Shown: piece after piece, positions 3,470-23,256 of the stretch
Layout of the letters: the number at the start of each line of letters is the position of its first letter
How positions within the stretch are numbered: the stretch's first letter is position 1
IMG/VR virus record: IMGVR_UViG_3300034071_000338
Location: 148-64,147 of that record
DNA from: a virus
Lineage: Duplodnaviria > Caudoviricetes
Length of the DNA: 64,000 bases
Strand: one strand, 5' to 3'
Translations under genes and position numbers: made by a program
The notes under the pieces: generated by a model
What the model was told of the DNA's origin: nothing
Databases searched by the model: none
Seen by the model: only the letters and a program-made list of their open reading frames with translations

Positions 3470-3476
3470 ATTGTAC

Positions 3477-3784: not shown

Positions 3785-3809
3785 TTGAACTATGTATGAA
3801 CATATTCAC

Positions 3810-3817: not shown

Positions 3818-3837
3818 TTCTCAAATTAAATTAAGTT

Positions 3838-4140
3838 ATGAAGCACGATGTATTCAATCAATATGTAGAAAGGGTTGCCGACCTATTTGGTGTGGCAAAG
3901 GAAGATATATTCTCTAAGTCAAAGAAGAGAGAGTATGTAGATGCAAGGCACTTGGTTTACTATCTATGTGCTAAGAGACCAATGCAGATAACGTACATTC
4001 AAAAGTATATGAATGATGCGGGGTATAAAATCAAGCACTCCTCTATCATCCACGGCATCAGCTCAGTTGAGCAGAAGATAGCAGAAGACAAGGACTATGT
4101 GTCTATTGTCAAGGATGTAGAGAGAGCAGTTTTCATTTAG
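3838..4140 (+). CDS. DnaA C-terminal (domain IV)-like helix-turn-helix protein
   Basis: I.SKSKKREYVDARHLVYYL...HSSIIHG matches the DnaA domain IV pattern (R...V..R.IAMYL...DHSTVIH). Confidence 0.75.
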   Translation: MKHDVFNQYVERVADLFGVAKEDIFSKSKKREYVDARHLVYYLCAKRPMQITYIQKYMNDAGYKIKHSSIIHGISSVEQKIAEDKDYVSIVKDVERAVFI

Positions 4141-4171
4141 TGTAATCAATCAATAATCAAATCAAATCAAA

Positions 4172-4816: not shown

Positions 4817-4818
4817 TA

Positions 4819-5559: not shown

Positions 5560-5581
5560 GATTTGCATTCCCCCAATGCGA

Positions 5582-5597
5582 GTGTCTTCAAAGACAC
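5582..5597. repeat. 16-bp palindrome copy 3
   Basis: GTGTCTTCAAAGACAC, 4 nt upstream of the tRNA-like element. Confidence 0.95.
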
Positions 5598-5601
5598 AGG
5601 C

Positions 5602-5682
5602 AGTCAGGAGTCGTTGCGGTAAACGAAAGCTGAGATTAAAGACCTCAGTCTGCTCTTGTAGGTTCGAGTCCTACCCTGACTA
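5602..5682 (+). tRNA. tRNA-like element or pseudo-tRNA with an atypical anticodon arm
   Basis: 7-bp acceptor stem AGTCAGG/CCTGACT; canonical T arm GTAGG-TTCGAGT-CCTAC; D-like arm TCGTT-GCGGTA-AACGA; CTGAG/CTCAG stem with 9-nt loop ATTAAAGAC; no U8 and no encoded CCA. Confidence 0.6.
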
Positions 5683-5757
5683 CAACTAACTATTAGCTTA
5701 GCCTCAGAGGTTAATGGTTGGTATAAATAGACTGAGGCAACAAATAAATTTAGAACG

Positions 5758-6072
5758 ATGGCAAACGAAGAAAAAATCTTTGCAGACGGATTCTCATTCA
5801 AGAGAAACGAAAAGGCACCTGACTTTGTAGTTGGGAGATTATCAATGAAAGTAGATGAAGCGGTAGCGTTCATCAGACAGCACGAGAAAGGTGGATGGGT
5901 AAACCTAAACATTAAGACTGCACGTAGTGGTAATCATTATGTTGAGTTGGATACCTACGAGCCGACTGCTCAGAGTGGTATGAAACCACAATCAGAGACA
6001 GTTGCTACTCCGAAACAAAAAGCACCTCAATCTCAGGTAGCTGATGAAGAAGAAGAGGTACTTCCATTTTAA
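5758..6072 (+). CDS. Probable single-stranded DNA-binding protein
   Basis: Small beta-rich protein with acidic tail ending EEEEVLPF, within the recombination/replication cluster. Confidence 0.6.
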   Translation: MANEEKIFADGFSFKRNEKAPDFVVGRLSMKVDEAVAFIRQHEKGGWVNLNIKTARSGNHYVELDTYEPTAQSGMKPQSETVATPKQKAPQSQVADEEEEVLPF

Positions 6073-6100
6073 AATTGACACCAATTTAGAAACAAGAATT

Positions 6101-6127
6101 GGGGGAGTGAAAACTTCCCCTTTTTTT
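6101..6127 (+). terminator. Intrinsic terminator
   Basis: GGGGAGT-GAAA-ACTTCCCC hairpin followed by T7. Confidence 0.75.
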
Positions 6128-6140
6128 ACCTCTAATGCGT

Positions 6141-6297
6141 GACGAAAATGTCGATGTGTTTTCCCTATATTCTCTATATGTGTTTTTCTATTCTTCTTAT
6201 TTTTTTAAATTATATTCTGAATAAAAAATTGACATAATCGACATTAATACTAATAATCAAATAGTTAGATACTTAAAACCGACATAAAACCGACATA
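6141..6297. repeat. Iteron-like array A (candidate replication origin)
   Basis: Inverted ATGTCG, pyrimidine/AT-rich tract, then TTGACAT-AATCGACAT and AAAACCGACAT x2, immediately before the primase gene. Confidence 0.6.
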
Positions 6298-6299
6298 CA

Positions 6300-8723
6300 A
6301 TGGTACATAATGTGACGATATTCCAAAATATTAGAGATACTGACACGCCATTCTTCCGAGATGTACACGTTATACTCGAGAGAATTAAAGACGGAGCCGG
6401 TGCTACTAAGGATTTGGTTAAGAAGATACGCTTAGAGAAGCGTAAACCTGAGAGGCAAGAACTAAAGAAGCAATTGCCGGCAATATGTTTCAGTGGTACA
6501 TTCAACAAGAGGACAGACGCATCATTGATTGAGCATTCAGGATTGATATGTTTGGACTTCGATGGATATACAAAGCAGAAAGAGTTATTGCAAGACAAAG
6601 AGAATTTATCAAAGAATAAGTATGTGTTCTCTGTATTCATTTCCCCTTCGGGTAATGGGCTGAAAGTTTTGGTGAAGATTCCGGCAGATGCAGAGAACCA
6701 TACAATGTACTTTAATTCATTAGAAAAGTACTTTAATTCGGCTTACTTCGACAAGACGAGCAAGAACCTCAGTAGAGTTTGTTACGAGTCCTATGACCCT
6801 CTAATTGCGATTAATGAGAATAGTAGTATTTGGGATGTGATTGAGGAACCTGAGTACACTGAGGTAAGCAAGACAAGAGACAAGGCAACGATACCAATTA
6901 CGGATGAGAATAAAATTGTGGAGATACTTGTAAAGTGGTGGGAGAAAAAATATCCTATGCACGAGGGACAGCGTAATCAGAATGCGTATGTGCTTGCGAT
7001 GGCGTTCAATGACTTTGGTATTAACAAGAGCCTTGCATCGTATGTACTTAATCAGTTTGCGTCAGAAGACTTTACGCTTAGGGAGATTGGGACGACCATC
7101 GACTCTGCGTATAGGCACACTGCGAACTTCGGTACCAAGTACTACGAAGATGAAGAGCGCATCAATACCATTAAAGCAAAGCTGAGACGTGGTGTATCAA
7201 AAAAAGAGATTCGCATCCAACTGCAGGACTCCAATTTGGACAGCGATACTATCGAGTCTGTACTAAATAAGGTTGAGGAAGAGAATGCGATGCAGACATT
7301 TTGGGACAGGAACGACAGGGGAGTCATCAAGGTTGTGCACGTACAGTTCAAACAGTTCTTGGAAGATAATGGATTCTATAAGTACTGCCCTGAGGGTGGT
7401 AAGAATTATATATTCGTAAAGGTTACCAATAACTTGATTGACCATACGAGTGAGAAAGAGATTAAGGACTTCGTGCTTACGCACTTGTTGGAGTTAGATG
7501 ATATTGGTGTGTACAATTACTTCGCTGACAATACGAGATTCTTCAAAGAAGAGTTCTTGTCATTGCTATCAACGATTGAGATTTACTTCATTGCTGATAA
7601 CAAAGATTCATCGTACTTGTACTATAAGAATTGTGCGATTAAGATTAGCAAAGAAGGTGTGACAACGCTTGACTACTTGGACTTGGGAGGGTACGTGTGG
7701 AAAGACCACGTGATAGATAGGAACTTCAACCTATGTAGTGTGACTGAAAGATGTGACTTCAAAAAGTTTGTGAGCAATATCAATGGCGGTGACCCAAGCA
7801 GAGTTAAAGCAATGGAGAGCACGATTGGATTCTTGCTACACGGATATAAGAACCTATCATTTTGTCCGGCTGTTATTCTAAATGATGAGGTGATTAGTGA
7901 TAACCCTGAGGGTGGAACCGGTAAGGGTCTACTGATGAGTGCGCTAAGTAAGATGAAGAAATTGGTTGTGATTGATGGCAAGTCATTTGCTTTCGAGCGT
8001 AGCTTCGCTTATCAGTTGGTGTCAGCAGATACGCAGATACTATGCTTCGATGATGTGAGAAAGCATTTTGACTTCGAGCGTTTGTTTTCAGTAGTTACTG
8101 AGGGTCTAACGCTTGAGAAGAAAAACAAGGACGCCATCAAGATACCATTCAGTAGGTCTCCTAAGATTGCCATCACAACGAACTATGCAATTAAGGGTGC
8201 CGGTAATTCATTTGCGAGAAGAAAGTGGGAGTTGGAACTTCATCAGTACTACAATAAGGAGTACACTCCGCTTGATGAGTTTGGTAAGTTGATGTTTGGC
8301 GATTGGAATGACGATGATTGGTGTGAGTTTGACAACTATATGATTGGTTGTTTAACGAACTATTTAAAGACGGGACTTGTGAAGAGCAAGTTTGTGAACC
8401 TTAAGATTCGTCAGTTGTCAGCAGAGACTTGCCACGAATTTATTGAGTGGTGTGGTCTTGTAGATACGCATCATAACAGAGAGGTAATGTTGCAACCGGA
8501 TGTTAGGCTTTATAAGAACGAGTTGTATGCTAACTTTGTAGATGAGTATCCTGACTACGGGCCTCGAGGTAGAATGAGTATAAGCAGAACCAAGTTCTAC
8601 AAATGGCTTATTGCTTATGGTATTTATAAGGAAGGAGTAATGCCACAGGAGGATAGAGACCAACAAGGTAGATGGATAATCATTAAAAGTAAACCTGAGG
8701 GACTTGAAGAAGCACCTTTTTAA
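6300..8723 (+). CDS. Primase-helicase (BT4734/VirE-N-like primase domain plus P-loop helicase)
   Basis: KKQLPAICFSG.F, HSGLICLDFD and FISPSGNGLK primase motifs; Walker A GGTGKG; Walker B LCFDD. Confidence 0.85.
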   Translation: MVHNVTIFQNIRDTDTPFFRDVHVILERIKDGAGATKDLVKKIRLEKRKPERQELKKQLPAICFSGTFNKRTDASLIEHSGLICLDFDGYTKQKELLQDKENLSKNKYVFSVFISPSGNGLKVLVKIPADAENHTMYFNSLEKYFNSAYFDKTSKNLSRVCYESYDPLIAINENSSIWDVIEEPEYTEVSKTRDKATIPITDENKIVEILVKWWEKKYPMHEGQRNQNAYVLAMAFNDFGINKSLASYVLNQFASEDFTLREIGTTIDSAYRHTANFGTKYYEDEERINTIKAKLRRGVSKKEIRIQLQDSNLDSDTIESVLNKVEEENAMQTFWDRNDRGVIKVVHVQFKQFLEDNGFYKYCPEGGKNYIFVKVTNNLIDHTSEKEIKDFVLTHLLELDDIGVYNYFADNTRFFKEEFLSLLSTIEIYFIADNKDSSYLYYKNCAIKISKEGVTTLDYLDLGGYVWKDHVIDRNFNLCSVTERCDFKKFVSNINGGDPSRVKAMESTIGFLLHGYKNLSFCPAVILNDEVISDNPEGGTGKGLLMSALSKMKKLVVIDGKSFAFERSFAYQLVSADTQILCFDDVRKHFDFERLFSVVTEGLTLEKKNKDAIKIPFSRSPKIAITTNYAIKGAGNSFARRKWELELHQYYNKEYTPLDEFGKLMFGDWNDDDWCEFDNYMIGCLTNYLKTGLVKSKFVNLKIRQLSAETCHEFIEWCGLVDTHHNREVMLQPDVRLYKNELYANFVDEYPDYGPRGRMSISRTKFYKWLIAYGIYKEGVMPQEDRDQQGRWIIIKSKPEGLEEAPF

Positions 8724-8733
8724 AATATAAATT

Positions 8734-8991
8734 ATGAAAACAGCAATGCAAGAATTTGAAATATTATTTTATAAGAAAGCACAACCAACCATTAATACGA
8801 ATAGTTGGGTAGTACATAAAGACGAGTTTGAAAAATTAATCTTAGCTGCCAAAGAAAAAGAAAAAGAGCAGATAATTACCGCTTTTGAAGTTGGATATAA
8901 ATCTTGCGATTTAGATGAAACGTTTGAAATTAATAGGAAATTAGCAAGTGGAGAACTGCACTATAACAAAACCTATAACCAAAACAAATAA
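8734..8991 (+). CDS. Hypothetical protein (KE.EKEQII.A motif)
   Basis: ORF in operon; MKTA and EKEQII motifs. Confidence 0.7.
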   Translation: MKTAMQEFEILFYKKAQPTINTNSWVVHKDEFEKLILAAKEKEKEQIITAFEVGYKSCDLDETFEINRKLASGELHYNKTYNQNK

Positions 8992-8994
8992 CCT

Positions 8995-9615
8995 ATGAAA
9001 TTAAATTCAAGCATACCAAGTTTTAAAGCAATGGTAAAGAAATCTTACTTTACTAAAGATGAAAAAGACAGCAATGAATACTACAGTGTTTACGTATTTG
9101 GTATTCAGTCTTGCGGGGGTAAGATACTTACATTTCACGTTATGACTGATTCGGGAATGTTAAGAAGCAGAGTACCGCTATCAGAGATATATACCAAAGT
9201 ACCAACCAATGATATACCATTTAACTATAAGCAGTTATGGGATTGCTTTAGTGAGAACGTGGCCGTTGTTGAATACGACTTCTTAGCATTTCATAGATGT
9301 CAAGTTGTGCTAAGAGATGGCACTAAGGTATGGGCTACGTATATATTGACGGTGGATTGGTTTAACAATCCTTATAGTGATGAACCGTCTGACTATAAAT
9401 GTGGGCATATCTTGGAGGCAGATGATGGGTACCTACTTTGTATGCCTAACAATAGAATCTTTTGGAAAGACTCTAACTTTGTAACAAAGCAATTACCTGA
9501 AGATTTAAAGCAGTTTAAGGTAGATACCGAACTTCATTCTGTAGAAAATCAATCAGACAGATGGGTAGCTGAGGATACCAATTCATTTTATTACGACATA
9601 ATAGAAAACAAATGA
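8995..9615 (+). CDS. Hypothetical phage protein
   Basis: 206-aa ORF; QLWDCFS, TVDW and PNNRIFW motifs. Confidence 0.75.
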   Translation: MKLNSSIPSFKAMVKKSYFTKDEKDSNEYYSVYVFGIQSCGGKILTFHVMTDSGMLRSRVPLSEIYTKVPTNDIPFNYKQLWDCFSENVAVVEYDFLAFHRCQVVLRDGTKVWATYILTVDWFNNPYSDEPSDYKCGHILEADDGYLLCMPNNRIFWKDSNFVTKQLPEDLKQFKVDTELHSVENQSDRWVAEDTNSFYYDIIENK

Positions 9616-9947
9616 CACAAGAACAAACAATTCACGTAGGAATAGTTAATTCATTTAACTTAATTACTGAACGAAATAGTTTTGAGGAGATAGTTGAATC
9701 AGACTTAAGTCTATTTGCTCACAATCCTAACACAGACCCATCCATTGAGGTGATTAACTTTATGATAGACTACTTCAAGTCCTACGAGATGTTTGAAAAT
9801 TGCGTAGAGTTGATGCAATATCTTGGTGAAAACTATGATGACAATGGCGTATTTATACATAAAGAGTGTGATTGCCAATTGCCATTAATAACAGAGTATA
9901 GCGAAAAGATGTATTGCGGAACCTGTAATCAACGATTAAAGAAATGA
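9612..9947 (+). CDS. Hypothetical protein with C-terminal Zn finger
   Basis: ATGA overlap with the upstream gene; CxC...CxxC. Confidence 0.65.
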   Translation: MTQEQTIHVGIVNSFNLITERNSFEEIVESDLSLFAHNPNTDPSIEVINFMIDYFKSYEMFENCVELMQYLGENYDDNGVFIHKECDCQLPLITEYSEKMYCGTCNQRLKK

Positions 9948-11404
9948 CAAACATAATAGAGAAGACGTCAGGTGCCACAAACAAATCAATGTGGGACTAT
10001 TGCGAAGCGCTTAAGCGTGTGATACTGCAGAAGACAGAGGTTAAGGTTGGTAGAGGCAAGAACATTGAGACGCTTGAGATATATAAATACAAGAACAATG
10101 CTGATACTGTTGAAAAAATTATTAATAGCTGCGAGCATTATAAAAAATTACACGAGATGGAAAGTGCGCAAGGATTTAACTATAGAGATTATCAGATAGA
10201 GATTATCGAGAAGGGTTATCAGATACTTTCCAAGTATGGCTTTTTGTATTTGGCAATGGAGGTTCGTACCGGCAAGACCCTGACAAGTCTCGGTATAGCT
10301 GAGCGTGTGCACGCAAAGAATGTGCTGTTCATTACCAAGAAGAAAGCGCTGAGCAGTATATCAGACGACTACTCAACGCTTAGCCCTTCTTATAATATGC
10401 AAGTAATCAACTACGAAAGCCTACACACCGTAATGGATGAGAAGTATTGGGATTTGATTATATGCGATGAGGCACACGGAATGGGAGCATTTCCTAAACC
10501 AAGTGGTCGTGCTGAATTGGTTGCTGAAGTGATTAAAAAATATAGACCAATGGTAATACTATTGAGTGGTACACCAACGCCTGAAAGTTATTCTCAGATG
10601 TACCATCAGGTCTATGCCATACCTAATAACCCATTCGAAGAGTTTAGAAACTTCTACCGCTTCTGCGATAAGTATGTAGCAGTCAAGCAGCGTAAGATTA
10701 ATGGACTACTTGTAAAAGATTATAGCAATGGCTTAGAGACCATCCTCAAGGAGATGGAGCCGTACACTATTAACTACACACAGCAAGAGGCAGGCTTTAT
10801 GACAGAGACCACAGAGGAGATACTTGAGGTAGAGATGAAGGAGTCTACCTATAAACTTATCAAAAAGTTAAAGAAGGACTTAGTTGTAGAGGGTAAAGAA
10901 GAGTTAATTTTAGCAGACACACCGGTTAAGTTGATGATGAAGGTGCATCAGTTGTGCAGTGGAACGATTAAGTTTGAGAGTGGAAGCTCAATGATACTCG
11001 ACCTTAGCAAGGCTGAGTTCATCAAAGAGCAGTTTGATGGGTGCAAGATTGGAATCTTCTACAAATTTAAAGAAGAGTACAATGCACTCAAACAAGTATT
11101 TGGCGATGACTTAACCTCTGAGTTAAGTGTCTTTGAAGACACCGGTAAATCTATAGCTTTACAAATCGTATCCGGACGTGAAGGTATCTCTTTACAAAAA
11201 GCAGAGTACTTGGTTTACTATAACATAGACTTCAGTGCTACGAGTTATTGGCAGAGCAAAGACCGAATGACCACAAAGGAACGCCTCGAGAATCAAGTGT
11301 ATTGGATTTTTGCAAAGGGTGGTATTGAATATGACATCTATAAGGCCGTTACAAAGAAGAAAGACTACACACTAAAACATTTCGAGAAGACGTTAATAGA
11401 ATAA
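9944..11404 (+). CDS. Superfamily 2 (SNF2/DEAH-like) helicase
   Basis: RTGKT Walker A, CDEAH, LSGTP, EGISLQ and WQSKDR motifs. Confidence 0.85.
   Translation: MTNIIEKTSGATNKSMWDYCEALKRVILQKTEVKVGRGKNIETLEIYKYKNNADTVEKIINSCEHYKKLHEMESAQGFNYRDYQIEIIEKGYQILSKYGFLYLAMEVRTGKTLTSLGIAERVHAKNVLFITKKKALSSISDDYSTLSPSYNMQVINYESLHTVMDEKYWDLIICDEAHGMGAFPKPSGRAELVAEVIKKYRPMVILLSGTPTPESYSQMYHQVYAIPNNPFEEFRNFYRFCDKYVAVKQRKINGLLVKDYSNGLETILKEMEPYTINYTQQEAGFMTETTEEILEVEMKESTYKLIKKLKKDLVVEGKEELILADTPVKLMMKVHQLCSGTIKFESGSSMILDLSKAEFIKEQFDGCKIGIFYKFKEEYNALKQVFGDDLTSELSVFEDTGKSIALQIVSGREGISLQKAEYLVYYNIDFSATSYWQSKDRMTTKERLENQVYWIFAKGGIEYDIYKAVTKKKDYTLKHFEKTLIE
11127..11142. repeat. 16-bp palindrome copy 4 (inside helicase gene)
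   Basis: GTGTCTTTGAAGACAC, read as SVFEDT. Confidence 0.95.
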
Positions 11405-11420
11405 ATACTAATTTTGTAAT

Positions 11421-12392
11421 ATGAGAATAAAAAACCAATTGGGCATAGAATACTTGGAAAAATTCCCTTCTATAAGTAAAAGTTCAATAGCTGCAAAACT
11501 ATACAACGACAATGCTCACATATTTTCAAATGTAGAAGATGCAAGAACAACTTTAAGAAGATTGACAGGAGCTAATAAAGAATTTTCGTCAAAGAAAATT
11601 AATATACCACACACACCTGACTTACCTCCTTCTATTATGAAGAACAGGGAGTTTGTTGATTTGCCAATTAGTAGCAATAAGATTTTATGGTTAAGTGATA
11701 TTCATATTCCTAATCAAGATAATGATGCACTTAATTTAGCAATTGAATATGGAGTTAAAAATAAAATAAATTGCATTGTATTAGGAGGGGACTTGTTGGA
11801 CAACACACCTTTTACTAATCACGATGCGCCACCTCCATCAGCAAATGATGTAATAGATTGGTTTGAGTATTGTCAAATATTCTTAAGCCATTTAAGAACT
11901 AAATTTCCTAAGGCGCATATTGTTTGGATAGAGGGAAATCACGATAATTGGTATGTTAGATATTTAATGAAGAAAGCACCAATGCTTTTTAATGATGAAT
12001 ATTTTAGACTACCACAGAGGCTTGACCTTAAAAAATATAATGTAGACTTTTATGAACAGCATATTGTAGTTCGTGCGGGTAAGCTACATATGTTACACGG
12101 TCACACAATTGTAAGAGGATTTATGGCACCGGTCAATGCTGCACGTGGAGTATTTATGAGAGCAAAGAGTTCAATAATTATAGGGCACGTTCACTCTACC
12201 TCAAATCACTCAGAGACCAATATAAAAGAGGAGCCTATATCTTGTTGGAGCACGGGATGTCTTTGTACACTTGCACCTGATTATGACCCTCATAATACAA
12301 AACATAACTTAGGGTTTGCGCATATATTAGTGGAGGAAAATGGAGAGTTTGAAGTGATTAATAAAAGAATAATCAACAATAAAATACACTAA
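11421..12392 (+). CDS. Calcineurin-like metallophosphoesterase
   Basis: SDIH, GGDLLD, EGNHD, HGH and GHVH motifs; TAATTTTG promoter element at 11409-11416. Confidence 0.85.
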   Translation: MRIKNQLGIEYLEKFPSISKSSIAAKLYNDNAHIFSNVEDARTTLRRLTGANKEFSSKKINIPHTPDLPPSIMKNREFVDLPISSNKILWLSDIHIPNQDNDALNLAIEYGVKNKINCIVLGGDLLDNTPFTNHDAPPPSANDVIDWFEYCQIFLSHLRTKFPKAHIVWIEGNHDNWYVRYLMKKAPMLFNDEYFRLPQRLDLKKYNVDFYEQHIVVRAGKLHMLHGHTIVRGFMAPVNAARGVFMRAKSSIIIGHVHSTSNHSETNIKEEPISCWSTGCLCTLAPDYDPHNTKHNLGFAHILVEENGEFEVINKRIINNKIH

Positions 12393-13630: not shown

Positions 13631-14108
13631 TATTATTAAGAACGTTATGAACGTAGATATAACCAAAAAGACCAATGAAAGAATATATGTAGATGGCAGA
13701 ATGATATTCTCAAAGATACTAAATGACAGAGGTTATGGCATAGCCATATTGGGTAGAGCGCTTAAAAAACACCATTCAAGTATCATCCATTATAGGACTT
13801 CAGCCAATGATTTATTGGATACCAATGAGTTATTTGCTCAGAAATACTTTGCCTGTAAGGATAAATTTATGTCAGATAAGGAAGATGTATTCAAAATATC
13901 AAACAAAGAACAGCTACTTAATCAAATAGATGCACTAATTTTGGATAGAAACGCCTTATTAAAAGAAGTTCAAAAGCACAGAAGACTTAAGAATATAATT
14001 GAGTATGTAGATAAAAGGACACCAAATGGTAAAGAGTCTTTAGTGCTTAGAAAAATTAATTTAATGTTTAATGGACTAACCGACTATGGACAAGAACTTG
14101 AATGGTGA
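13596..14108 (+). CDS. Second DnaA domain IV-like HTH protein
   Basis: KKTNERIYVDGRMIF...LKKHHSSIIHY parallels the 3838 protein. Confidence 0.65.
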   Translation: MQGRKEIEELIDIIKNVMNVDITKKTNERIYVDGRMIFSKILNDRGYGIAILGRALKKHHSSIIHYRTSANDLLDTNELFAQKYFACKDKFMSDKEDVFKISNKEQLLNQIDALILDRNALLKEVQKHRRLKNIIEYVDKRTPNGKESLVLRKINLMFNGLTDYGQELEW

Positions 14109-14280
14109 AAATGCTCGAGCCGAGCGTATAGCCTTTAGAATCAATGAACATCATTTGCTATTGGCAAATATCTACGAAACCATTGTGGACAGGGACTTTG
14201 TGCCTGCGGAAAAGGACATAAGAAATCTTATTATAGACCTTAGATTAATATTAAAATCATTAGAAGACGATGACTTTTGA
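14086..14280 (+). CDS. Hypothetical protein
   Basis: Overlapping ORF in operon. Confidence 0.6.
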   Translation: MDKNLNGENARAERIAFRINEHHLLLANIYETIVDRDFVPAEKDIRNLIIDLRLILKSLEDDDF

Positions 14281-14683
14281 AACAGAGGTAGACTTAATCA
14301 GAGAGAAGAAAGCAATTGAATTATTCGTAAGCATATTTGATGGGTCATACAAGAAGCTCGACCCACAAGATGTAGACTATAAAATATTTGACAAGGATAA
14401 GAACTTAATCGCCTATGCTGAGGTTAAAGGACGCATTAGAACAATGAAGACAGCATATCCCCTTCCGGTATCAGCAAGAAAATTAGTGAAGTTAATTGAT
14501 AAAAGATTAGCACCCGTATTAATATGGGCGTGTGAGGACGGTATCATCTATGGCAAAGCAAACAAACTACAAGGACAAATCAAGTGGGGAGGTCGCCCTC
14601 CCCGTGATGGTTCATTTAGTGATTCCGAGATGATGGTCTACTTTGACAATCAGAAGGAGCTTAAGTACATTAGGTACGTTTAG
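14270..14683 (+). CDS. PD-(D/E)XK-type nuclease
   Basis: D...DY...AYAEVKGR catalytic pattern. Confidence 0.6.
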   Translation: MTFETEVDLIREKKAIELFVSIFDGSYKKLDPQDVDYKIFDKDKNLIAYAEVKGRIRTMKTAYPLPVSARKLVKLIDKRLAPVLIWACEDGIIYGKANKLQGQIKWGGRPPRDGSFSDSEMMVYFDNQKELKYIRYV

Positions 14684-17600
14684 TACAGTTTCTGTAATCC
14701 TCCTTTACCCTTTTTAGGCTTAGGAGTATAATCGTACATCTCATCTTTCATTGCTCTTTCTACACTATCCTTCTCTCTCTTAATTAATTTTTCCGCTTGT
14801 TTTGCATCATAGTCAGGAGCGTCAGGACCGAATGTTCTATACCAAAGGTCATAATCATAGCGCTTCATATCCTCTTGGTTTTGAAATCCTTGAAGTTTTT
14901 CTTCCTCAGCTTTCTTTTTATCTCCTTTAGTTCTATCAGCTTTCTCAAGGTCTTTGTAAAGGTCTTTCATTACAGCTTTACGAATGTCTTTGTATAAAGG
15001 AACAAGACCTAAGTTTCCTAATACCTCAAGAGGAATTCTTACATTAAGTTCTTTTTCTCTTCTCGCAATAGCATCTTCTTTTACCTTTTCTTTCTCTGTC
15101 ACTTTTTTAACAATAAAAGCAGCAGTATTTAACGCAGGAGTATAAGCACCTCCCATATTCATAAGTAATTTACCTAAGTCTGTTTGTTTGCTATCGTCCC
15201 TTGGTATTAATGTGTAAGCAATACCATCTTTGTATGGGTCGTAATCTCCTTCTCTTAAAAAGTCAAGGTACTTTTCATTTGCTTCTTCTATACCATAGTT
15301 TAATACATTCTTAACAGCGTTACCGAAATCTCTTCCGATTAATAATGAACTAAATGCAGAAGCGAATGCTTGACCAAGTTTCTGCATAAATGATTTTTCT
15401 GTTTCAGGCTCTTCATCATCAAAGAATAATCCCATAAGACCCGTGCCCAACATTTGAAAAATTAATCCATATAACACCATACGTGTAGCAACTGCTCCAA
15501 GAACTGCACCACCTTGTTGTTTAGTTAATGAGCCATTACCAATCGCTGCCATAATAGCTGTACGTGCTGTAACATATTCAAATATCAAAAACTTTGTCAT
15601 AAAGTTATTCATATTATTAAATGCTCTTAATGCAAGTTTTTGGTCAGGCTTTACAGTTCCTTTTAAAATACCCATAAATGGATTGTCAGTTGCTCCCACC
15701 ATTACAGACCTTTCATCTGCAAGTTCAGTAGCTTTATCAAGAGCCTCTTTGTTGGCTTCCATATACGCTTCGTCATTTGCTGCAATCTTTTCAAAGTCTA
15801 CCTCTTTTCCTGTGATATTTTCAAATTGATTAGCAAATGAACCAAACCACATAGGTCTCATTATAACTTTATCAGGAGTCGAAATCAAAGCATCAGCTTG
15901 AAGCTCAACTGCATTAACATATTTTTTACCTGACCTATTCCAAATTTGTTGAATTTTATTTTTAACAGGATTCTTTGATACAGCACCTTTAATTCCACTT
16001 GCTTGACTTAATATTGAAGTATCAACTAATCTTCCTGATAATGTATCTGTAGGGAAAATTCTATTAGTCTGCTTGCTTTTTAAGTTTTCCATTATAGTAG
16101 GAGCATCTGAAGACATAATAATTCCTCTATATTTTACACCTGATGCAAGAGCTTTAGGGTCGCTAATTACTGCAAAACCAATGTTTGAACTTAATTCGGA
16201 TACAAACCTGCTTGTACCTGCAAGTACTGCACGGTATCCTTGCTTATTTATGTAATCAAGTGCTATGTCTAATGTTGAATCCTGAGTAAATGTATTTGTC
16301 AATAAATTATCTACCGTCTCTTCAAATGCAGCATTGATAGCGTTTATTATTTGTCTTTGCTCTTTAGGTATTCTTCCTTTACTTTCTAAATTAGCAATAG
16401 TACCATTGATAGTTTTACGAGCTGTACGTATTGGCTTCGTCAAATTAAAATCCATCAATACAAACTTAGCACCACGCTGAGCACTTGCGAATACGTCAAA
16501 GTTTAATGGAGACACCTTGCCTGTTCTTGCAATCAAAGACTTTGCTTTAGTAGATGGCCTCATTGCGTTGTTATATTCAGTAACAAATGCACTTCCTGAT
16601 GTTAAATCGCTTGGTTGAAATTCGTGTAGTACGTTTAAGTGAACATAGTTATTCAACGGGTCAATTCTATCGCCACGAATAATCGCTGCAGTAAACTCAG
16701 CTTGCTCTCTTAAAGATTCGTTTATACCACGAATATCATTAATGGCATCTTTCTCAGCTTGATTAAATGATTTGTATAACTTTTCATTATCAATATTTCC
16801 ATCAGTAGAAAAATCTTTAAGTATTTGTTGCAACATTTCAGCATCACGTTCTCCAAATCGAGACTTGCCTGCATCAATGTGCTTAATGGTAGCTTTTAAA
16901 TAATCAGCAGCAGGATTTACTTCCTTGTTTCCTTTGTTTGATTCGTACTCAAGCTGAATCATATATGTCATCATCTTAAACTTAGACATAGTCACTGCAT
17001 TAGGTTCAAGCCCAAGCGATTTAGCTACTTTTTCTTCAGCTTTCTCTAATATATTTTGAACTCTATTTAATTGAGTTTTAAATGCAGCAACCGCTTTTGC
17101 AGGCTCACTGAATAATGAATTAAATATATCCTTTGTTTTAAAGTTTCCAAATAATTGGTCAATATAAAATAAAGGGTTTCTTCTAATCATCTCTAAGACA
17201 CCTGTTCTTCCTTGCATTGCAACTTCAGCTTTTACTTTAGAATACAATTGAGAAAACTTATACATTTTACTTTGCTCAACGGCTTTAGTTAAGACCTTGT
17301 CAGTATTAAGTCCATTTAATTTCTCTAACATTATCTCTCCGTAGTGAGGTAAGTAGTTGTTATTTATATTATCAATAACCTTAAGCAAGTTCTTTAACTC
17401 AGTGTTGGTTAAACCATCTACTGCATCAGTTTTAACAACCCTACTTAACTCCTTAATTGTATCTCTTTCATACTTAGTAGAAAGACCTGAGCCATCAATA
17501 GTAGATTTTTTTACTGCATCAGTTAGTTCTTTTCTTTCTGCTGCTAACTCCTCTTCGGTAAGCTCAGTTTCTTCAACTTGAGGAGCAATATCATCCTTAT

Positions 17601-20600
17601 ACTTACGCATAGTCTCTGCTTCCTTATCGTCAATCTCTTTCTCATCAAGCATTTTCTTAACTGATGCTGCGTAGTCTAACTCATTATCCTTATATACCTT
17701 GTTCTCTGAATTATTGAATCTATCAGCTAACTCATCAGCTTTTGATTGTTCGTTGTCAATCTCATCAAGGATAGCTTGAACATCTTTAGTTACTACAGAC
17801 TTCTCATCAAGTGTAAGCACTGCTTGTCTTGCGCCAAACATATCAACCAATTCTAAGTAACGACCAAGGAACTGATTAGGTATAAGTGTTGGGTTAATAG
17901 AAAATAATCTATTCAATGGTCCTACTAATCCATCAGCGATACCAATCTTAGTAACAATGTTCTTCTTAGCCATCTTTAACTTGCTCTTAGCTACGTCAAT
18001 CTTATCAGCATACTCTGCGTTTGCAAACACCTTAGCCATATAGTCAACAAAGTTTGACACTGAAATCTCGTTTAGCATATTCACCTTGCCAAATCTTGAT
18101 ACAATATTAGCTGCTTGGATAGATGTAATCTTTCCTTTTGATGCCATCTCTCTAATGTCCTTAGCCAATTCCTTAGCTGCATCTCTTGATAAGTCTCTGA
18201 TTTGCTTGATGACAAGCATCTTCTCTTCTCTTGAGATATTGGTAATGTCTTTTAATGCGCCAAGCACACGTCCAATTGACACAGCACGCTTAGCTCCAAC
18301 ACCCATTTTAAATCTACCTTCACGCTCCATTACTTTCTTCTGAGCATCTGTAGCTCGACTATACACCTCAGAGTTTCTAATTAAAGTATCTAAGTTTGAT
18401 ATTATCTTGGCATCAGCTATACCTCTTCTTTTTTGACGAGTAATTAACTCATCAACCTTTGTCATTAATTCAGTGTAGCCCGGCAACTTATCTTCAGTAA
18501 CTTTTTCTCTTTCATTGAAAAAGTCTGTTACCGTTTTTTCTATATTATTTCTCTTAGCTTCTCCTAATACGTTTACTATTTCTTTTATGGCTTCTTTTAA
18601 TGCGACAGAAAATTCTACTCCTCTATCCATTAACCTACCAATCTCAACAACTGACTTAGCTATTAATCTCTTAAATTCATCTGCGCTTAATCCTGCTTTT
18701 TGAGTTCCTTCAGGTAGCGTAGGAGTAAACCAAGATGGCAATTCAAAGTTATCTATATCTTCAGCTAACTTTAATGCTTTGGTTTCAAACTCACCTTTAG
18801 CTTTAGTCTTAGCTTTTTTAGCTGCAACTTTAGCTTTTTCTTTAGCCTTTTTATTTTGCTCTTTGTCAAACTCTTTCTTCTTAATCTTATTATAACTATC
18901 AGCAACTGCTTGCTTAGCTTCTCCTAATGTTTCAAATCCATCAAAGCCAATCTCATTACCATCAATATCCTCTGCGGTAAATGAGAACATTTTATCTTCA
19001 TCAGTAAGTTTTGTTATAGTTCCAATAGGGTCACCATCTGCATTACGTGCTTCAACAGTAAGTGATGATATGTATGTTACAGTTCTTCCACTTTCAGTTT
19101 CTTTTTCATCTTCAAGATAGTCAATAGCATTATCCTTAGTGAACGCATCAGTCTTAACTTCAGACGCTTGCACAGGGACAAACTGCTCTTCTTCTTCTAT
19201 TACAAGAGTAGCTTCTGCTTGAACAGGCTTATAGTCTATTAAAGATTGCGGAGCCTTACCATTGTTACCTGCATCCCATTGTGACTTATCAGCAGCATCT
19301 ACATTGTTTTTAAATGCTTCTACATCATTCATAAAGGATTCGGCAAGTGTAGAATTTGGATTAGTAAATGCATCATAATATAAGTCGCTTAATCTTGCGG
19401 CCTCATCTCTTAAATTATCATCTACATTAGTATCTCTTTGAATCTCATAAAAATAATGACCAAGCCCATCAGGGATATTCCAACCAAGACGAGCACGTAC
19501 TGCATCTAACTTTTGTTTAGCTGTAGCTTTTTGTTTCTCATCTCCGGTAAATCCTTTTAAGCCATCTTTAGCTAAATAGGCTTCATTGGTAATCACTTGA
19601 ACTTCTGCGATTGTACCATTAGATGTACGAATTTCAATAAGTCTTTTTGGATAACCTAAGTCTGTAGTCTCGGTAATTCTTCTTAATTCTTTGTCGCCCG
19701 GATATTTCTCATCAATTGTTTTAAATACTTTATCAGCATTAGCTTCAGTATCTACTACAATATTTACACGTGCGCCATCACCAAGTTTTTCGGTGAATGC
19801 ATTATACCATCTGATAGCTTTAACAGATGCACGTTCAGGGCGTTTAATTGGGAATGGGGATATGGATGCATCAACTTCAGCAATGGCATCTTGTGCAATG
19901 CTTTCTACTTCGGCCTTAGCGTCTTCGTAAAGTTTTTTATTTGTTTCAAATGTACGCTGCACTGCAGGCTGTACTACTTTATTTAACTCGTTAAATCGAG
20001 TTTGTTCTTCAGGAGATAACTTTTTTCCTTCTTTTTGTAAATCAATTTCTTTTTGACGCAAGTCAGCAAGTTCAACTGCAAGTGCTTCTACTTTTGTGGT
20101 TGATTCTTTGAACGATTTAAGAACGTCACTTCTATCGAATTGTCTTGTTGGGTCTGAGGTTCCTTCATTTTTGGCTCCTTGGTAAGAAGATTTTTTGATT
20201 CTAACCGTTGGTTTAACTTTGACATTAGGTCCGAGTACATCAGCCGTTGCTTTTTCGGCTGCGATTGACTTTGAGTCAAGGTCTCTTGTTCGTTCTTCAT
20301 ATTGTTCATCTTCTGTTAAATTTTGTTGGTCAGTATCTTCAAAGAATTTAATTATAGATACTTTAATCTCGTTATTATTAATGTTGAATGCCTCAACACC
20401 ATTCTTTTCAAGTTCAACTGACAGGTCTGTAACTTGTTCGTCAGTTATTGGTTCATCAAAGGTATAAATAATTTGTGGATAATGCATCAAATTATTTTCA
20501 TCAAATTCAGTAAGAGGTATATCTCTCTTTCCACTAAACACATCTGACTCATATTCAGAGTCTGTTTCTAATATAAATGCATCTTGAGAATACTTCTCAG

Positions 20601-23256
20601 CAAAGTCAAATAATAACTTACTAACTGCTTCAGTATTAGCTTGTGGACTAATTGATAGAATCATATTAAATGATGGCTCAAATGAACCATTCCATAAGCC
20701 ACGCTTAGGGTCGCTAAACTTAACAGCTACACCATCAACTTTTGCTACTTCATCAATAATATCTTGCTTAGCATCGTTTAATATTTGATTTTCAGCTTCC
20801 TTTATCTTAGCAAGAACTTTAGGGTCTTTCTTTTTAGCGTATTGCTTAACAAACTTGTCATAGTTCAATGACAACTTCTTAATCCTTTTAGTTACAGGCG
20901 TAGCTTCACGTACTGTAGCCGGAGTAATTAATACAGATATATCTCTAACTAACTTAGGAGCTTGTGTCTTTAAAGACACTTTTTGTTCTGCTTTTAATGT
21001 TTCTAACTCACTATTTATCTCATCAATACGAGCACGTGTTTTTAATTGAATTGGAGAATTAGGCATTTGCTTTAACGCTTTAGAGGTCAAAGACACCTTT
21101 TCTTTTTCAAGTTTATTTATTTTTTCAATTACTTCTTGCGTCCCGATTTCAGGAGTGACCTCTTCGGTCCTTGTGGTAACGACTTGAGGTCCTTGGTCTC
21201 CTTCGACCACTTGCTGCAATCCCACTTCGGGTTGTTCTGTGCGTAGCACGCCTTCATCTGTTGTTTGTTTTTGAATGGCATAATCTTTTGCTTGTTTACC
21301 GGTTAATGTATATGAATATCCTTCTCCTATTTTTCCTGATATTTTTTTTCCTAATGGAAGACCAAATATCATTTTTCTACCCTCGAACTCAATGCCTTCT
21401 TTTTTTACGGCTATATCTCTGAATTGTTCAGGTACTTCTTCAAGTGTTTTTACATTGAAAGTAACATTTTCATTATCATCTAATGAAGATATTTCTTCAG
21501 GAATACCTAATGTCACTTCTTCCACTTGTGGCTTAGACTCCATTATAATCTGTTGTATTTGATTGTTGAGGTCAGCAATCTCTTGCTTTTCTCTTGCTAC
21601 AAGTACATCATCTTTATTCTGAATGTCAGTTTTTAATTGGTCTCTTTGTCTAAGTAAAGTAGCAATCTGAGCCTTCTCTGCATTGGTAACCTTTAAGTCT
21701 TTTACAGCATTTGAAACCTGCTGTACCTTATCGAATACATACAATGATTGCTTTGCTTCATCTTCTGAAATCTCACCATCCTTTACTTTCTTAGTTAAGT
21801 TCTTAGATAATATATCTCTTGACTTATTAGTATTAGCTATTTGGATTTGTTCTGCTGTAATAGGAGCATCTTTTGATACATTAAATACTTGGTCTAATTT
21901 TGTATCAGTGTCTTTTAATACGGCATTTATCTCTTCCTTAGACTTGTATGTCTCAACAAGATTAGTTACCTTATCCTTTGCTTTCATTGCATTGATAGGA
22001 GCTGTGAATACCACACCACTGCCTGCACCTGTTACAAATGCATCAGCAACACCTTCAAACGTAGGCTTATTACTAAGCACATTCTGAGTGATTTGAGTAG
22101 CTGCTTCTTCAATACCTTCACCCAATAGACCAATAGGAGCACCATACTTTGTCAATGCACCTTTATAAGCCTGAACTAAACCATCTCTAAAAATATTCTT
22201 TCCTACTTCTACACCTTCTTTCTTAACAATGTCTTTATAAACCTGACCAATTGTACCTGTACCAATTGCACTAAATACAGTCTCAGCCGCAGACATACCT
22301 AATGCCTTTACGGTCTTTTCAATCTCAGGCATATCAGGATTTTCTTCGCCTAATTGCTCTCTATTTTGTTCAAGGAATCCGGCAGTACTAATTGCTGCTA
22401 ACTCAGCAGGAGCAAGCGTAGCTCCTCCCATCATCATAGCTATACTTACAGGAGCAGACTCTACAATGCTACTTCCAAGTAATTCAAATGCATCATTATA
22501 GTTGCCCTTCTGTATATTGTCTACAATACCTGAGCTTTCGTATCTTTCTTTATTAAATTTAGCAGTAACCTCTTGTAATCTTTTTTCTTCTTCGTTTAAC
22601 TTGTTTAATACGGGATTGCTTATGCCAAACTGCTTTTTAAATGTATCAGCGTTAGCTGCAATATCCCAACCTGTAGCCCAAGCCAATGCATTCTGAGGTA
22701 TAGATGCAATATTGATAACCGTCTCAGGTATAGATGCAACCATCTTCTCCAATGAGGTAAGACCTGATAATGCTCTTGTGCCTATGTTTTTTAAGTAAAC
22801 GTTTTCTTCCTCAGGCATTTCAAGCGCTCCTAAATTCTTAAGTAATTTTTCTTTTTTAGGCGGAGCCATCTCAGGTATAACATTCGTTATAGTTTCAGGA
22901 AGAGGCGTAACACCTGTTGGCGTTGCAAATCCTGTCTCTGCTGCTACTTGTCCTTCTCTAAGAAATTTAGGAAGCGGTTTTGACGAAACCAAAGAAGTAT
23001 CTTCCGAAGGTAATTCCGTAGTACCTTTTTTTTTTAATTCAGGCTGAGCACTAAATCCAAACTCAGGGAACTTGCTAAACACCTCATCTTCCGTAGCATA
23101 CTTGCCACTATTAGAAGTAGCAACAAAGTCTCTTAAAGCCTGAACATCATATCCTTTTAATTCAGGAAACTTAGAAAGTAACGTAGCTTCGTCAGCATAT
23201 TTACCACTATTTGATGTAGCAACAAAATCTCTTAACGCTTGTTTTAAATCCGACAT
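14680..23256 (-). CDS. Giant putative internal virion/ejection (polyvalent) protein with a RelA/SpoT-like domain
   Basis: 2858 aa, last gene of the structural operon; N-terminal 33-aa tandem repeat; synthetase-like motifs near aa 1130-1295. Confidence 0.75.
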   Translation of the reverse strand: MSDLKQALRDFVATSNSGKYADEATLLSKFPELKGYDVQALRDFVATSNSGKYATEDEVFSKFPEFGFSAQPELKKKGTTELPSEDTSLVSSKPLPKFLREGQVAAETGFATPTGVTPLPETITNVIPEMAPPKKEKLLKNLGALEMPEEENVYLKNIGTRALSGLTSLEKMVASIPETVINIASIPQNALAWATGWDIAANADTFKKQFGISNPVLNKLNEEEKRLQEVTAKFNKERYESSGIVDNIQKGNYNDAFELLGSSIVESAPVSIAMMMGGATLAPAELAAISTAGFLEQNREQLGEENPDMPEIEKTVKALGMSAAETVFSAIGTGTIGQVYKDIVKKEGVEVGKNIFRDGLVQAYKGALTKYGAPIGLLGEGIEEAATQITQNVLSNKPTFEGVADAFVTGAGSGVVFTAPINAMKAKDKVTNLVETYKSKEEINAVLKDTDTKLDQVFNVSKDAPITAEQIQIANTNKSRDILSKNLTKKVKDGEISEDEAKQSLYVFDKVQQVSNAVKDLKVTNAEKAQIATLLRQRDQLKTDIQNKDDVLVAREKQEIADLNNQIQQIIMESKPQVEEVTLGIPEEISSLDDNENVTFNVKTLEEVPEQFRDIAVKKEGIEFEGRKMIFGLPLGKKISGKIGEGYSYTLTGKQAKDYAIQKQTTDEGVLRTEQPEVGLQQVVEGDQGPQVVTTRTEEVTPEIGTQEVIEKINKLEKEKVSLTSKALKQMPNSPIQLKTRARIDEINSELETLKAEQKVSLKTQAPKLVRDISVLITPATVREATPVTKRIKKLSLNYDKFVKQYAKKKDPKVLAKIKEAENQILNDAKQDIIDEVAKVDGVAVKFSDPKRGLWNGSFEPSFNMILSISPQANTEAVSKLLFDFAEKYSQDAFILETDSEYESDVFSGKRDIPLTEFDENNLMHYPQIIYTFDEPITDEQVTDLSVELEKNGVEAFNINNNEIKVSIIKFFEDTDQQNLTEDEQYEERTRDLDSKSIAAEKATADVLGPNVKVKPTVRIKKSSYQGAKNEGTSDPTRQFDRSDVLKSFKESTTKVEALAVELADLRQKEIDLQKEGKKLSPEEQTRFNELNKVVQPAVQRTFETNKKLYEDAKAEVESIAQDAIAEVDASISPFPIKRPERASVKAIRWYNAFTEKLGDGARVNIVVDTEANADKVFKTIDEKYPGDKELRRITETTDLGYPKRLIEIRTSNGTIAEVQVITNEAYLAKDGLKGFTGDEKQKATAKQKLDAVRARLGWNIPDGLGHYFYEIQRDTNVDDNLRDEAARLSDLYYDAFTNPNSTLAESFMNDVEAFKNNVDAADKSQWDAGNNGKAPQSLIDYKPVQAEATLVIEEEEQFVPVQASEVKTDAFTKDNAIDYLEDEKETESGRTVTYISSLTVEARNADGDPIGTITKLTDEDKMFSFTAEDIDGNEIGFDGFETLGEAKQAVADSYNKIKKKEFDKEQNKKAKEKAKVAAKKAKTKAKGEFETKALKLAEDIDNFELPSWFTPTLPEGTQKAGLSADEFKRLIAKSVVEIGRLMDRGVEFSVALKEAIKEIVNVLGEAKRNNIEKTVTDFFNEREKVTEDKLPGYTELMTKVDELITRQKRRGIADAKIISNLDTLIRNSEVYSRATDAQKKVMEREGRFKMGVGAKRAVSIGRVLGALKDITNISREEKMLVIKQIRDLSRDAAKELAKDIREMASKGKITSIQAANIVSRFGKVNMLNEISVSNFVDYMAKVFANAEYADKIDVAKSKLKMAKKNIVTKIGIADGLVGPLNRLFSINPTLIPNQFLGRYLELVDMFGARQAVLTLDEKSVVTKDVQAILDEIDNEQSKADELADRFNNSENKVYKDNELDYAASVKKMLDEKEIDDKEAETMRKYKDDIAPQVEETELTEEELAAERKELTDAVKKSTIDGSGLSTKYERDTIKELSRVVKTDAVDGLTNTELKNLLKVIDNINNNYLPHYGEIMLEKLNGLNTDKVLTKAVEQSKMYKFSQLYSKVKAEVAMQGRTGVLEMIRRNPLFYIDQLFGNFKTKDIFNSLFSEPAKAVAAFKTQLNRVQNILEKAEEKVAKSLGLEPNAVTMSKFKMMTYMIQLEYESNKGNKEVNPAADYLKATIKHIDAGKSRFGERDAEMLQQILKDFSTDGNIDNEKLYKSFNQAEKDAINDIRGINESLREQAEFTAAIIRGDRIDPLNNYVHLNVLHEFQPSDLTSGSAFVTEYNNAMRPSTKAKSLIARTGKVSPLNFDVFASAQRGAKFVLMDFNLTKPIRTARKTINGTIANLESKGRIPKEQRQIINAINAAFEETVDNLLTNTFTQDSTLDIALDYINKQGYRAVLAGTSRFVSELSSNIGFAVISDPKALASGVKYRGIIMSSDAPTIMENLKSKQTNRIFPTDTLSGRLVDTSILSQASGIKGAVSKNPVKNKIQQIWNRSGKKYVNAVELQADALISTPDKVIMRPMWFGSFANQFENITGKEVDFEKIAANDEAYMEANKEALDKATELADERSVMVGATDNPFMGILKGTVKPDQKLALRAFNNMNNFMTKFLIFEYVTARTAIMAAIGNGSLTKQQGGAVLGAVATRMVLYGLIFQMLGTGLMGLFFDDEEPETEKSFMQKLGQAFASAFSSLLIGRDFGNAVKNVLNYGIEEANEKYLDFLREGDYDPYKDGIAYTLIPRDDSKQTDLGKLLMNMGGAYTPALNTAAFIVKKVTEKEKVKEDAIARREKELNVRIPLEVLGNLGLVPLYKDIRKAVMKDLYKDLEKADRTKGDKKKAEEEKLQGFQNQEDMKRYDYDLWYRTFGPDAPDYDAKQAEKLIKREKDSVERAMKDEMYDYTPKPKKGKGGLQKLY
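20964..20979. repeat. 16-bp palindrome copy 5 (inside giant protein gene)
   Basis: GTGTCTTTAAAGACAC, read as VSLKT. Confidence 0.95.

Follow-up and report, generated by a model that had tools for sequence, protein, structure and literature searches.

Known pyrophosphokinase toxins and the phage locus

Synthetases of (p)ppApp are known as type VI secretion system (T6SS) effectors, as the toxic partners in toxin–antitoxin (TA) systems and as MuF-fused prophage toxins (PMC10083569). Here we analyze a related domain that lies inside a giant phage protein, encoded in a stretch of 64,000 nucleotides (hereafter the window) that comprises bases 148-64147 of the IMG/VR virus record IMGVR_UViG_3300034071_000338. 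The record is 64,147 bp long, has direct terminal repeats and is estimated to be complete. The giant open reading frame (ORF; 14680..23256, minus strand) encodes 2858 amino acids and is the final gene of a minus-strand block of virion and packaging genes; the domain in question, a mobile Apk/Tas1-like module, covers residues ~1060-1342 (19231..20079, minus strand). We read it as an active enzyme of the Tas1/Apk lineage of small alarmone synthetase toxins, a cassette of a mosaic, polyvalent-type virion giant, which would be delivered together with the phage DNA and would use an adenine nucleotide as acceptor to produce (p)ppApp. We assign this joint reading a probability of about 0.6.

The described protein closest to the window domain by both sequence and fold is Tas1 (Apk1), the T6SS (p)ppApp synthetase effector of Pseudomonas aeruginosa, which consists of an N-terminal PAAR domain and a C-terminal toxin domain and has an adjacent Tis1 immunity gene, as described in PMC10083569. 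Tas1 and the window domain have in common the Lys, Lys, Asp, Arg, Tyr, Glu-x-Gln and Gly-His-x-x-Tyr-Glu-x-x-Arg motifs, as well as a motif 3 without the His of (p)ppGpp synthetases. Unlike Tas1, the window domain is internal to a 2858-residue phage protein with no recognized immunity gene nearby, displays GYPKRL where Tas1 has GYSGVN, and contains a five-residue insertion after the syn4 motif. Apk2, found in temperate phages (Bacteroides caccae, Streptococcus pneumoniae, Mannheimia, Pasteurella), resembles the window protein in that a phage encodes it and its Apk-type domain is fused to a protein from the head or virion module. For the MuF-Apk2 proteins, (p)ppApp synthesis is proven and IapK and Aph1 confer immunity; these proteins also provide a precedent for phage delivery of an Apk domain (PMC10083569, PMC12226406). 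Apk2 is prophage-borne and about 500 residues long, its toxin domain is C-terminal, and its gene is followed by iapK (Tis1-like) and often by aph1 (PMC10083569, PMC12226406). By contrast, the window giant has no MuF domain, its phage has no integrase, resolvase or HD_4 hydrolase match, the domain is internal to the giant protein and the signatures of syn2 to syn4 are different. According to PMC10083569, the role of a phage-borne (p)ppApp synthetase during infection 'has not been explored'.

The window giant also resembles the polyvalent proteins described by Iyer et al. 2017 (PMC5512222): both are huge multidomain phage proteins with effector domains shuffled like cassettes. [quoted passage not shown] The window clade differs from these cases in that its genomes are podophage-like and have their relatives among phages of Flavobacterium, Cellulophaga and Tenacibaculum. 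The toxSAS enzymes FaRel2, PhRel2 and CapRel share the toxSYNTH core fold and donor-site residues with the window domain (PMC11782079), but are host-side TA or defence toxins neutralised by pZFD antitoxins at the donor site, not virion cargo, and have no sequence-level match to it; PMC11782079 agrees with the annotation that small alarmone synthetase toxins make (pp)pApp or pyrophosphorylate tRNA CCA ends. Our literature search found no further case of this kind beyond PMC5512222, PMC11782079, PMC12226406, PMC12691689 and PMC10083569; it did not extend to the 2,959 Apk1/Tas1 homologues listed in the supplement of PMC12691689. Four aspects of the locus are new: a large unannotated clade in podophage-like genomes of Flavobacteriia type, the internal position in a giant virion-block protein of an apparently virulent phage, the apparent lack of a hydrolase and of an adjacent immunity gene beside a phage-borne enzyme, and a third, clade-wide acceptor-site signature.

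A Tas1-like pyrophosphokinase domain inside the giant protein

The initial annotation recognized a RelA/SpoT-like synthetase at 19370-19900 from five short strings, all of which are found in the 2858-residue ORF in the order given: IKRPERASVK at residues 1137-1146, LGDGARVNIVV at 1158-1168, LGYPKRLIEI at 1200-1209, AEVQVIT at 1217-1223 and GHYFYE at 1266-1271. Together they span residues 1137-1271 (nt ~19443-19848). The annotated interval falls within the conserved catalytic core of a RelA-SpoT homologue (RSH)/Tas1-type pyrophosphokinase (19360..19932, minus strand, residues 1109-1299), although the real feature is slightly wider, as the whole module adds to the catalytic core a helical extension on its N-terminal side and, on its C-terminal side, a helical tail peculiar to the clade. 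The acceptor-site motif GYPKRL (G-loop, syn3) is located at 19639..19656 (minus strand, residues 1201-1206).

A phmmer search with residues 1090-1340 against PDB sequences matches the toxin domain of Tas1/Apk1 (PDB 6OX6 chain A) at E 3.6e-7. The alignment pairs query residues 21-212 with Tas1 chain residues 256-437, which is the entire toxin domain. Tas1 is the sole PDB sequence match of the domain at E<0.1, and a search with the whole 2858-residue protein adds no other PDB match at E<=1. Among 1.84 billion representative proteins, the domain has 194 matches at E<=1e-3, 57 at <=1e-10 and 46 at <=1e-30, a degree of sequence similarity that is far beyond chance. The strong matches are mostly proteins of 1800-4300 residues with the domain at widely differing positions, and the weak ones (about 23-35% identity) are mostly smaller proteins in which the domain is C-terminal. 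Pfam RelA_SpoT is found at E<=0.01 in four of the ten weak matches that were scanned, once at the gathering score; one of the ten carries Phage_Mu_F and one PG_binding_1.

An alignment of the query with 39 small relatives formed the basis of a profile search and of an AlphaFold2 model. Searched against the PDB, the profile retrieves Tas1 at E 5.3e-80, followed by SaSAS/SaEAS at 2.5e-4, two small alarmone synthetase (SAS) 'GTP pyrophosphokinases' at 1.7e-3 and 0.011, and RelA at 0.09. Five of the 40 aligned sequences, the query not among them, match Pfam RelA_SpoT at E<=0.01. The AlphaFold2 model has a predicted local distance difference test score (pLDDT) of 92.9 and a predicted template modelling score (pTM) of 0.88, with strands at model residues 41-45, 74-79, 104-108, 114-121 and 127-134. 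In a Foldseek search of the PDB its top match is again Tas1 (6OX6_A, E 5.6e-8, TM score 0.74 normalised on Tas1, 27% identity). There are 20 matches at E<=1e-3, those listed being RSH synthetases, with more RSH entries just above this threshold; after Tas1 come SaEAS, M. tuberculosis Rel, B. subtilis SAS1, CapRel (ranks 15 and 23, E ~1e-3), Rel and RelA. The best match in a viral structure library is a phage protein named 'Tas1', and the next are 'RelA/SpoT', 'ART-PolyVal-like' and 'DdrB-like' proteins of uncultured phages. The predicted structure is that of an RSH synthetase, in which helices flank a central antiparallel beta-sheet as they do in Rel, SAS and Tas1, and on this modelled fold the domain belongs to the RSH synthetase superfamily (SYNTH/toxSYNTH fold). 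The superfamily proposed in the initial annotation was right, while the nearest kin are of the Tas1/Apk type and not housekeeping RelA/SpoT.

Residue conservation was surveyed in domains excised from 43 strong and 89 weak (Tas1-like) matches and aligned with the query, which yields a giant-protein clade of 44 sequences, the query included, and a Tas1-like set of 89. Positions conserved at 88-100% in both sets are K1138, K1146, Y1151, D1160, R1163, G1201, Y1202, G1214, E1218, Q1220, A1229, K1230, G1264, G1266, H1267, Y1270, E1271, R1274, S1290, Y1293 and Y1294. The donor-ATP site (K1138, K1146, D1160, R1163, E1218 and Q1220) reaches 100% in both, and the G-loop Tyr Y1202 is present in 91% of the giant clade and 98% of the Tas1-like proteins. 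As described for FaRel2 in PMC11782079, the donor phosphates are contacted by Lys and Arg residues of the first strand and helix, the catalytic Asp holds Mg2+, an Arg and the Glu-x-Gln motif surround the donor adenine, and the G-loop Tyr lies beneath the acceptor base; K1138, K1146, D1160, R1163, Y1202, E1218 and Q1220 correspond to these donor, catalytic and G-loop roles. R1163, E1218 and Q1220 also align with R330, E382 and Q384 of Apk1, which PMC12691689 gives as active-site residues (the Apk1 numbering offset of 21 is taken from the phmmer alignment and fits four residues). Donor-site and catalytic residues are therefore kept across the homologues. Neither outcome that the initial annotation had named as refuting, a fold of another type or catalytic residues that vary among homologs, was observed.

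Comparison with 12 orthologous giants from related viral contigs, two near-identical ones being left out, reveals how unevenly the protein is conserved. Identity to the query is 86% in the core (residues 1109-1299), 68% in residues 760-1059, 65% in 1343-2000 and 74% in 2001-2858. Residues 1-750 are hypervariable, mostly at 25-40% identity with a single 50-residue block at 58%, whereas residues 760-2858 are conserved. Within the giant protein, constraint is greatest on the enzyme domain, which displays strong purifying conservation. Judging from sequence and predicted fold, residues ~1060-1342 very probably constitute an active RSH-type pyrophosphokinase of the Tas1 lineage.

A mobile cassette in a virion-block protein

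The module is matched at E<=1e-5 in at least 129 proteins of 1571-5002 residues, encoded on metagenomic contigs of up to ~85 kb. Where their sources give names, these are 'hypothetical protein' and one other uninformative name. A blastp comparison of the giant with its homologues shows that the block of residues ~1060-1342 is common to otherwise unrelated giants at differing positions: the module occurs anywhere from position 3 to position ~2500, and the homologues compared, some of them fragments, reach 4332 residues. Hallmark polyvalent-protein domains are found by Pfam in three of five module-bearing giants, namely ART-PolyVal in P0033, LPD23 with sub-threshold ART-PolyVal and LPD38 in P0235, and Kinase-PolyVal in P0201; P0243 has DUF7178 only and P0011 no Pfam domain. 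The distribution is that of phage-type polyvalent proteins, with domains shuffled as cassettes. A tblastn survey of 50,697 records of isolated phages with the domain returned one weak match (MT835636.1, 25.6% identity, E 9e-5), so the clade is not seen in that collection, which may omit records very near the window.

The giant ORF closes a gene block that opens, upstream of it, with the large terminase (39969-42218, minus strand; phrog_6681, E 5.5e-182) and the portal (37537-39972, minus strand; phrog_6547, E 2.1e-142), with several PHROG 'virion structural protein' families on the same strand between them and the giant ORF. Relatives of the portal are found in Flavobacterium, Cellulophaga, Tenacibaculum and Maribacter phages, and the portal is 75% identical to that of the uncultured podovirus MW202828.1, the nearest relative in GenBank. 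By these similarities the source is probably an uncultured, podovirus-like phage of Flavobacteriia type. No integrase or resolvase match is present in the phage record, and the phage is apparently virulent.

The conserved C-terminal region of the giant protein (14905..17259, minus strand, residues 2000-2784) matches phrog_32588, a family of unknown function, at E 1.6e-69. With tblastn, residues 2025-2688 match giants in 68 phage records at ~22% identity, 67 of them from Flavobacterium and one from Bacteroides, and ESM-Atlas leads for the region point to LPD38/LPD39 clusters. The elemovirus homologue of this region, a protein of 3694 residues, is annotated as 'structural protein'; our literature search, PMC7077304 included, gave nothing on how this annotation was reached. 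The Apk domain is missing from the elemovirus giant and from the 3859-residue product of the syntenic giant gene of MW202828.1, as hmmsearch with all filters off gave negative scores (positive control 222 bits). The MW202828.1 giant shares just a 35-residue stretch with the window giant; its gene (741-12320) is annotated as 'reticulocyte binding/rhoptry protein', apparently a misnomer for a giant phage protein of low complexity.

Virion delivery is plausible because the gene closes the terminase–portal–structural block, because the C-terminal kin are annotated as structural and because module-bearing giants carry polyvalent domains. From gene position and family context, we consider it fairly probable that the giant protein is delivered from the virion into the host. 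In the mechanism that we propose, the protein would be packaged in the virion and would enter the host together with the DNA, so that the enzyme would act ahead of phage gene expression. The domain would move the beta-gamma pyrophosphate of ATP onto the 3'-OH of an acceptor nucleotide, the likeliest acceptors being ATP, ADP or AMP, which would yield (p)ppApp as for Tas1 and Apk2 (PMC10083569, PMC12226406). ATP would then fall and a growth-arresting nucleotide would flood the cell at the very start of infection.

The acceptor site of the clade

The 44 giant-protein sequences group into one clade (support 1.0) on a long stem that measures 1.35 substitutions per site; the clade's sister in the tree is a MuF-fused protein, P0055, which is also the best non-clade match. 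The clade departs from its relatives in all three acceptor-site motifs, compared here by the signatures given in PMC12226406. In syn3 the clade has G-Y-P-K-R-L, Apk enzymes G-Y-S-G-x-N and (p)ppGpp synthetases S-x-H; in syn2 it has R-(T/V)-N (R1163-V-N in the query) and Apk enzymes R-N-T; in syn4 it has V-(M/I) (V1221-I in the query) and Apk enzymes V-N. Adenine-type signatures are defined in the same source, citing Bartoli 2023, as GxN in syn3, R-[N/Y]-T in syn2 and V-N or Y-H in syn4. Within the giant clade K1204 and L1206 are present in 100% of the sequences, P1203 in 93% and R1205 in 89%, and the positions of P1203, K1204 and L1206 in the Tas1-like set are occupied by S (73%), G (96%) and N (47%). 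Two more features, a five-residue insertion after syn4 with F1236 (93%) and the residue W1150 (100%), are confined to the clade and absent from Tas1-like proteins.

The missing His of motif 3 had been taken in the initial annotation as a hint of a different substrate. Its absence is ordinary for Apk enzymes, which have GxN and not SxH (PMC12226406), and the motif is unusual through the KxL of the clade instead. As GYPKRL fits neither (p)ppGpp nor (p)ppApp synthetases, the product is not assignable from the signature; by analogy with the characterized relatives, we give (p)ppApp about an even chance.

Weighing of the alternatives

Several observations weigh against a delivered enzyme that makes (p)ppApp. 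The adenine-type signatures of proven (p)ppApp synthetases in syn3 (GxN), syn2 and syn4 do not occur in the clade, and 100% of the clade has Leu at the position of N370 of Apk1, which is on the active-site residue list of PMC12691689. The Tas1-like superfamily also includes producers of (p)ppGpp and of both nucleotides (PMC12691689), so that the product does not follow from homology to Tas1. Among curated families, Pfam RelA_SpoT (PF04607) gives no match at E<=1 to either the whole giant protein or a 300-residue piece, NCBIfam has nothing on the domain, and PHROGs offers just one weak family of unknown function and no annotated match; the Pfam miss is explained by the limited reach of the RelA_SpoT model and does not conflict with the fold evidence. 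The window giant itself has no Pfam polyvalent-protein domain, and no family reaches the gathering score over its 2858 residues. Its location in the virion, which is most likely, derives from gene order and from the 'structural protein' annotations that others gave to homologues. The complete phage record has 0 matches to PF13328 (HD_4), the family of Aph1-type hydrolases. There is no immunity gene next to the giant gene, the next gene being a convergent PDDEXK nuclease, although no search was aimed at divergent Tis1-like proteins and many small ORFs carry no assignment. With no hydrolase or following immunity gene found, tolerance of a very fast ATP-consuming activity during assembly or after injection lacks an obvious explanation, which is a difficulty for the proposal.

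A comparison of the window ORFs with the Apk-less MW202828.1 left too many unique ORFs for an antidote candidate to be singled out. For a 64-residue ORF near the 3' end of the giant gene (14086-14280, plus strand), tblastn detects counterparts in 12 of the 14 viral loci that bear Apk and does not detect any in MW202828.1; as a linked small protein it is a lead, nothing more.

The clade-wide acceptor site could also mark a third specificity class of RSH pyrophosphokinases. Such a class would be distinguished by the KxL G-loop, the Phe-bearing insertion and the invariant Trp, would be carried in the virion by a virulent phage without an antidote, and would act on some acceptor other than the usual adenine and guanine nucleotides. 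Conceivable targets include a signal of host defence, a cofactor and the 3' end of an RNA. We regard this possibility as doubtful; if true, it would represent a new kind of injected counter-defence or take-over enzyme and not a plain ATP-burning toxin.

The same fold and chemistry might alternatively serve a guanine acceptor, or a promiscuous enzyme, with a (p)ppGpp-type stringent shut-down of the host in place of ATP depletion. The exported Tas1-like synthetases do include the (p)ppGpp-specific VpEAS and AaEAS and the promiscuous SaEAS (PMC12691689), the last of which is the second-best PDB match of the window domain by sequence profile and by fold, and the Apk signature GxN is not kept in the clade. 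However, the guanine-type SxH is missing too, its place being taken by KxL. In both sequence and structure the domain stands nearest to Tas1, a (p)ppApp synthetase, and the tree places a MuF-fused protein of Apk2 architecture as sister to the clade. A guanine or mixed acceptor appears unlikely to us.

A further alternative retains the enzyme and dispenses with its delivery: the domain might work late in the producing cell, for instance in a metabolic shut-down before lysis, or the giant might not be a virion component. The case for the virion is built on gene order and annotations, Pfam detects no MuF, PAAR or other known delivery domain in the giant protein, and the missing immunity gene would matter less if the enzyme were made just before lysis. 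On the other hand, the gene is located within the virion block, the C-terminal third of its product has homologues in isolated podophages that carry a structural annotation, and related giants bear polyvalent-protein domains, which have been proposed to be codelivered with DNA (PMC5512222). Late ATP depletion would also be expected to hamper ATP-driven DNA packaging. We find a role confined to the producing cell improbable, to much the same degree as a guanine acceptor.

In another alternative, no free purine nucleotide would be the acceptor: the pyrophosphate might go to the 3'-CCA end of tRNA, the substrate of FaRel2, PhRel2 and CapRel, or to some different molecule with a 3'-OH, in which case host translation would be blocked or a host signalling molecule disarmed. 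The acceptor loop is remodelled throughout the clade, with the basic K1204 and R1205, the F1236-bearing insertion and W1150; the tRNA-modifying toxSAS enzymes have the same core fold (PMC11782079), and CapRel is among the Foldseek matches. Yet FaRel2, CapRel and PhRel proteins have no sequence-level match to the domain, the fold match of CapRel (E ~1e-3) is weaker than that of Tas1 (E 5.6e-8), and the phage itself requires translation. The window contains no tRNA or tRNA-like element by either method applied: ARAGORN finds 0 tRNA or tmRNA genes and Rfam 0 families at the gathering score. These counts also leave the speculative link to a CCA-less tRNA mimic, raised in the initial annotation, without support, and an RNA or other 3'-OH acceptor seems quite unlikely overall. 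A catalytically dead relic that serves as a mere structural spacer in a giant virion protein, for which the failure of curated family models to recognise the domain and the Leu in place of Apk1 N370 might speak, is very improbable given donor-site and catalytic residues conserved at 91-100% in 44 clade members of 34-89% identity, a domain that is the best-conserved segment among orthologues, and its retention as a unit while its surroundings are swapped.

Other regions of the giant protein and of the genome

Directly upstream of the pyrophosphokinase module in the protein lies an alpha/beta domain with no assigned function (20077..20979, minus strand, residues 760-1060). The two travel together in about 12 giant homologues, where residues 760-1342 form a common block. 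The AlphaFold2 model of the upstream domain has a pLDDT of 84.7 and no PDB match at E<=1e-3 in Foldseek. An assignment to S-AdoMet_lyase/DUF3293 was rejected: an ESM-Atlas score of 0.84 was the sole lead, and neither Pfam nor Foldseek supports it. For a Tis1-like inhibitor acting in cis, 6OX6 chain B is not among the Foldseek matches listed, and a complex prediction of the upstream and Apk domains scored 0.00 (mark 0.32), which gives no verdict either way. The upstream domain might regulate the enzyme or be a second effector.

The sole strongly hydrophobic stretch of the giant protein (15421..15513, minus strand, residues 2582-2612; Kyte-Doolittle, 19-residue window, threshold 1.6) is a candidate membrane-inserting segment by its composition. 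In the first 53 residues of the protein a 14-residue string is tandemly duplicated, at residues 7 and 40.

A second giant ORF (45359-51565, minus strand, 2068 residues) separates the packaging genes from a series of small ORFs. PHROG, Pfam, NCBIfam and the PDB sequences contain no match to it, and its tblastn match of 34% is to MW202828.1 only. A phage GroEL-type chaperonin is encoded at 57714-59330 (minus strand; Cpn60_TCP1, E 4e-57). Beside it, a 103-residue ORF (57181-57492, minus strand) has a 65% identical homologue in MW202828.1, where the gene adjoining groEL is annotated as 'chaperonin 10 kd subunit'. A 385-residue protein encoded at 449-1606 (plus strand) has an N-terminal part that weakly resembles class-II glutamine amidotransferases, joined to a GGACT (gamma-glutamyl cyclotransferase-like) domain, and has a 45% identical counterpart in MW202828.1. 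The G+C content is 0.43-0.44 at the window ends (1-2000 and 60001-64000) and 0.34-0.41 in the interior. The GC skew flips sign near 14000, where the plus- and minus-strand gene blocks converge, and again near 60000.

Implications for phages of Bacteroidota and the RSH superfamily

The setting of the clade differs from that of known (p)ppApp synthetases: its members occur in virulent-looking phages, as a cassette embedded within a giant virion-module protein, with no hydrolase or adjacent immunity gene found and with an acceptor site that is both distinct and strictly conserved. That the phage is uncultured is a weakness for experimental follow-up. With at least 129 metagenomic members, the clade is a candidate source of new substrate specificity in the RSH superfamily, and it could help to test if injected nucleotide pyrophosphokinases are a means by which phages take over or disarm their Bacteroidota hosts.

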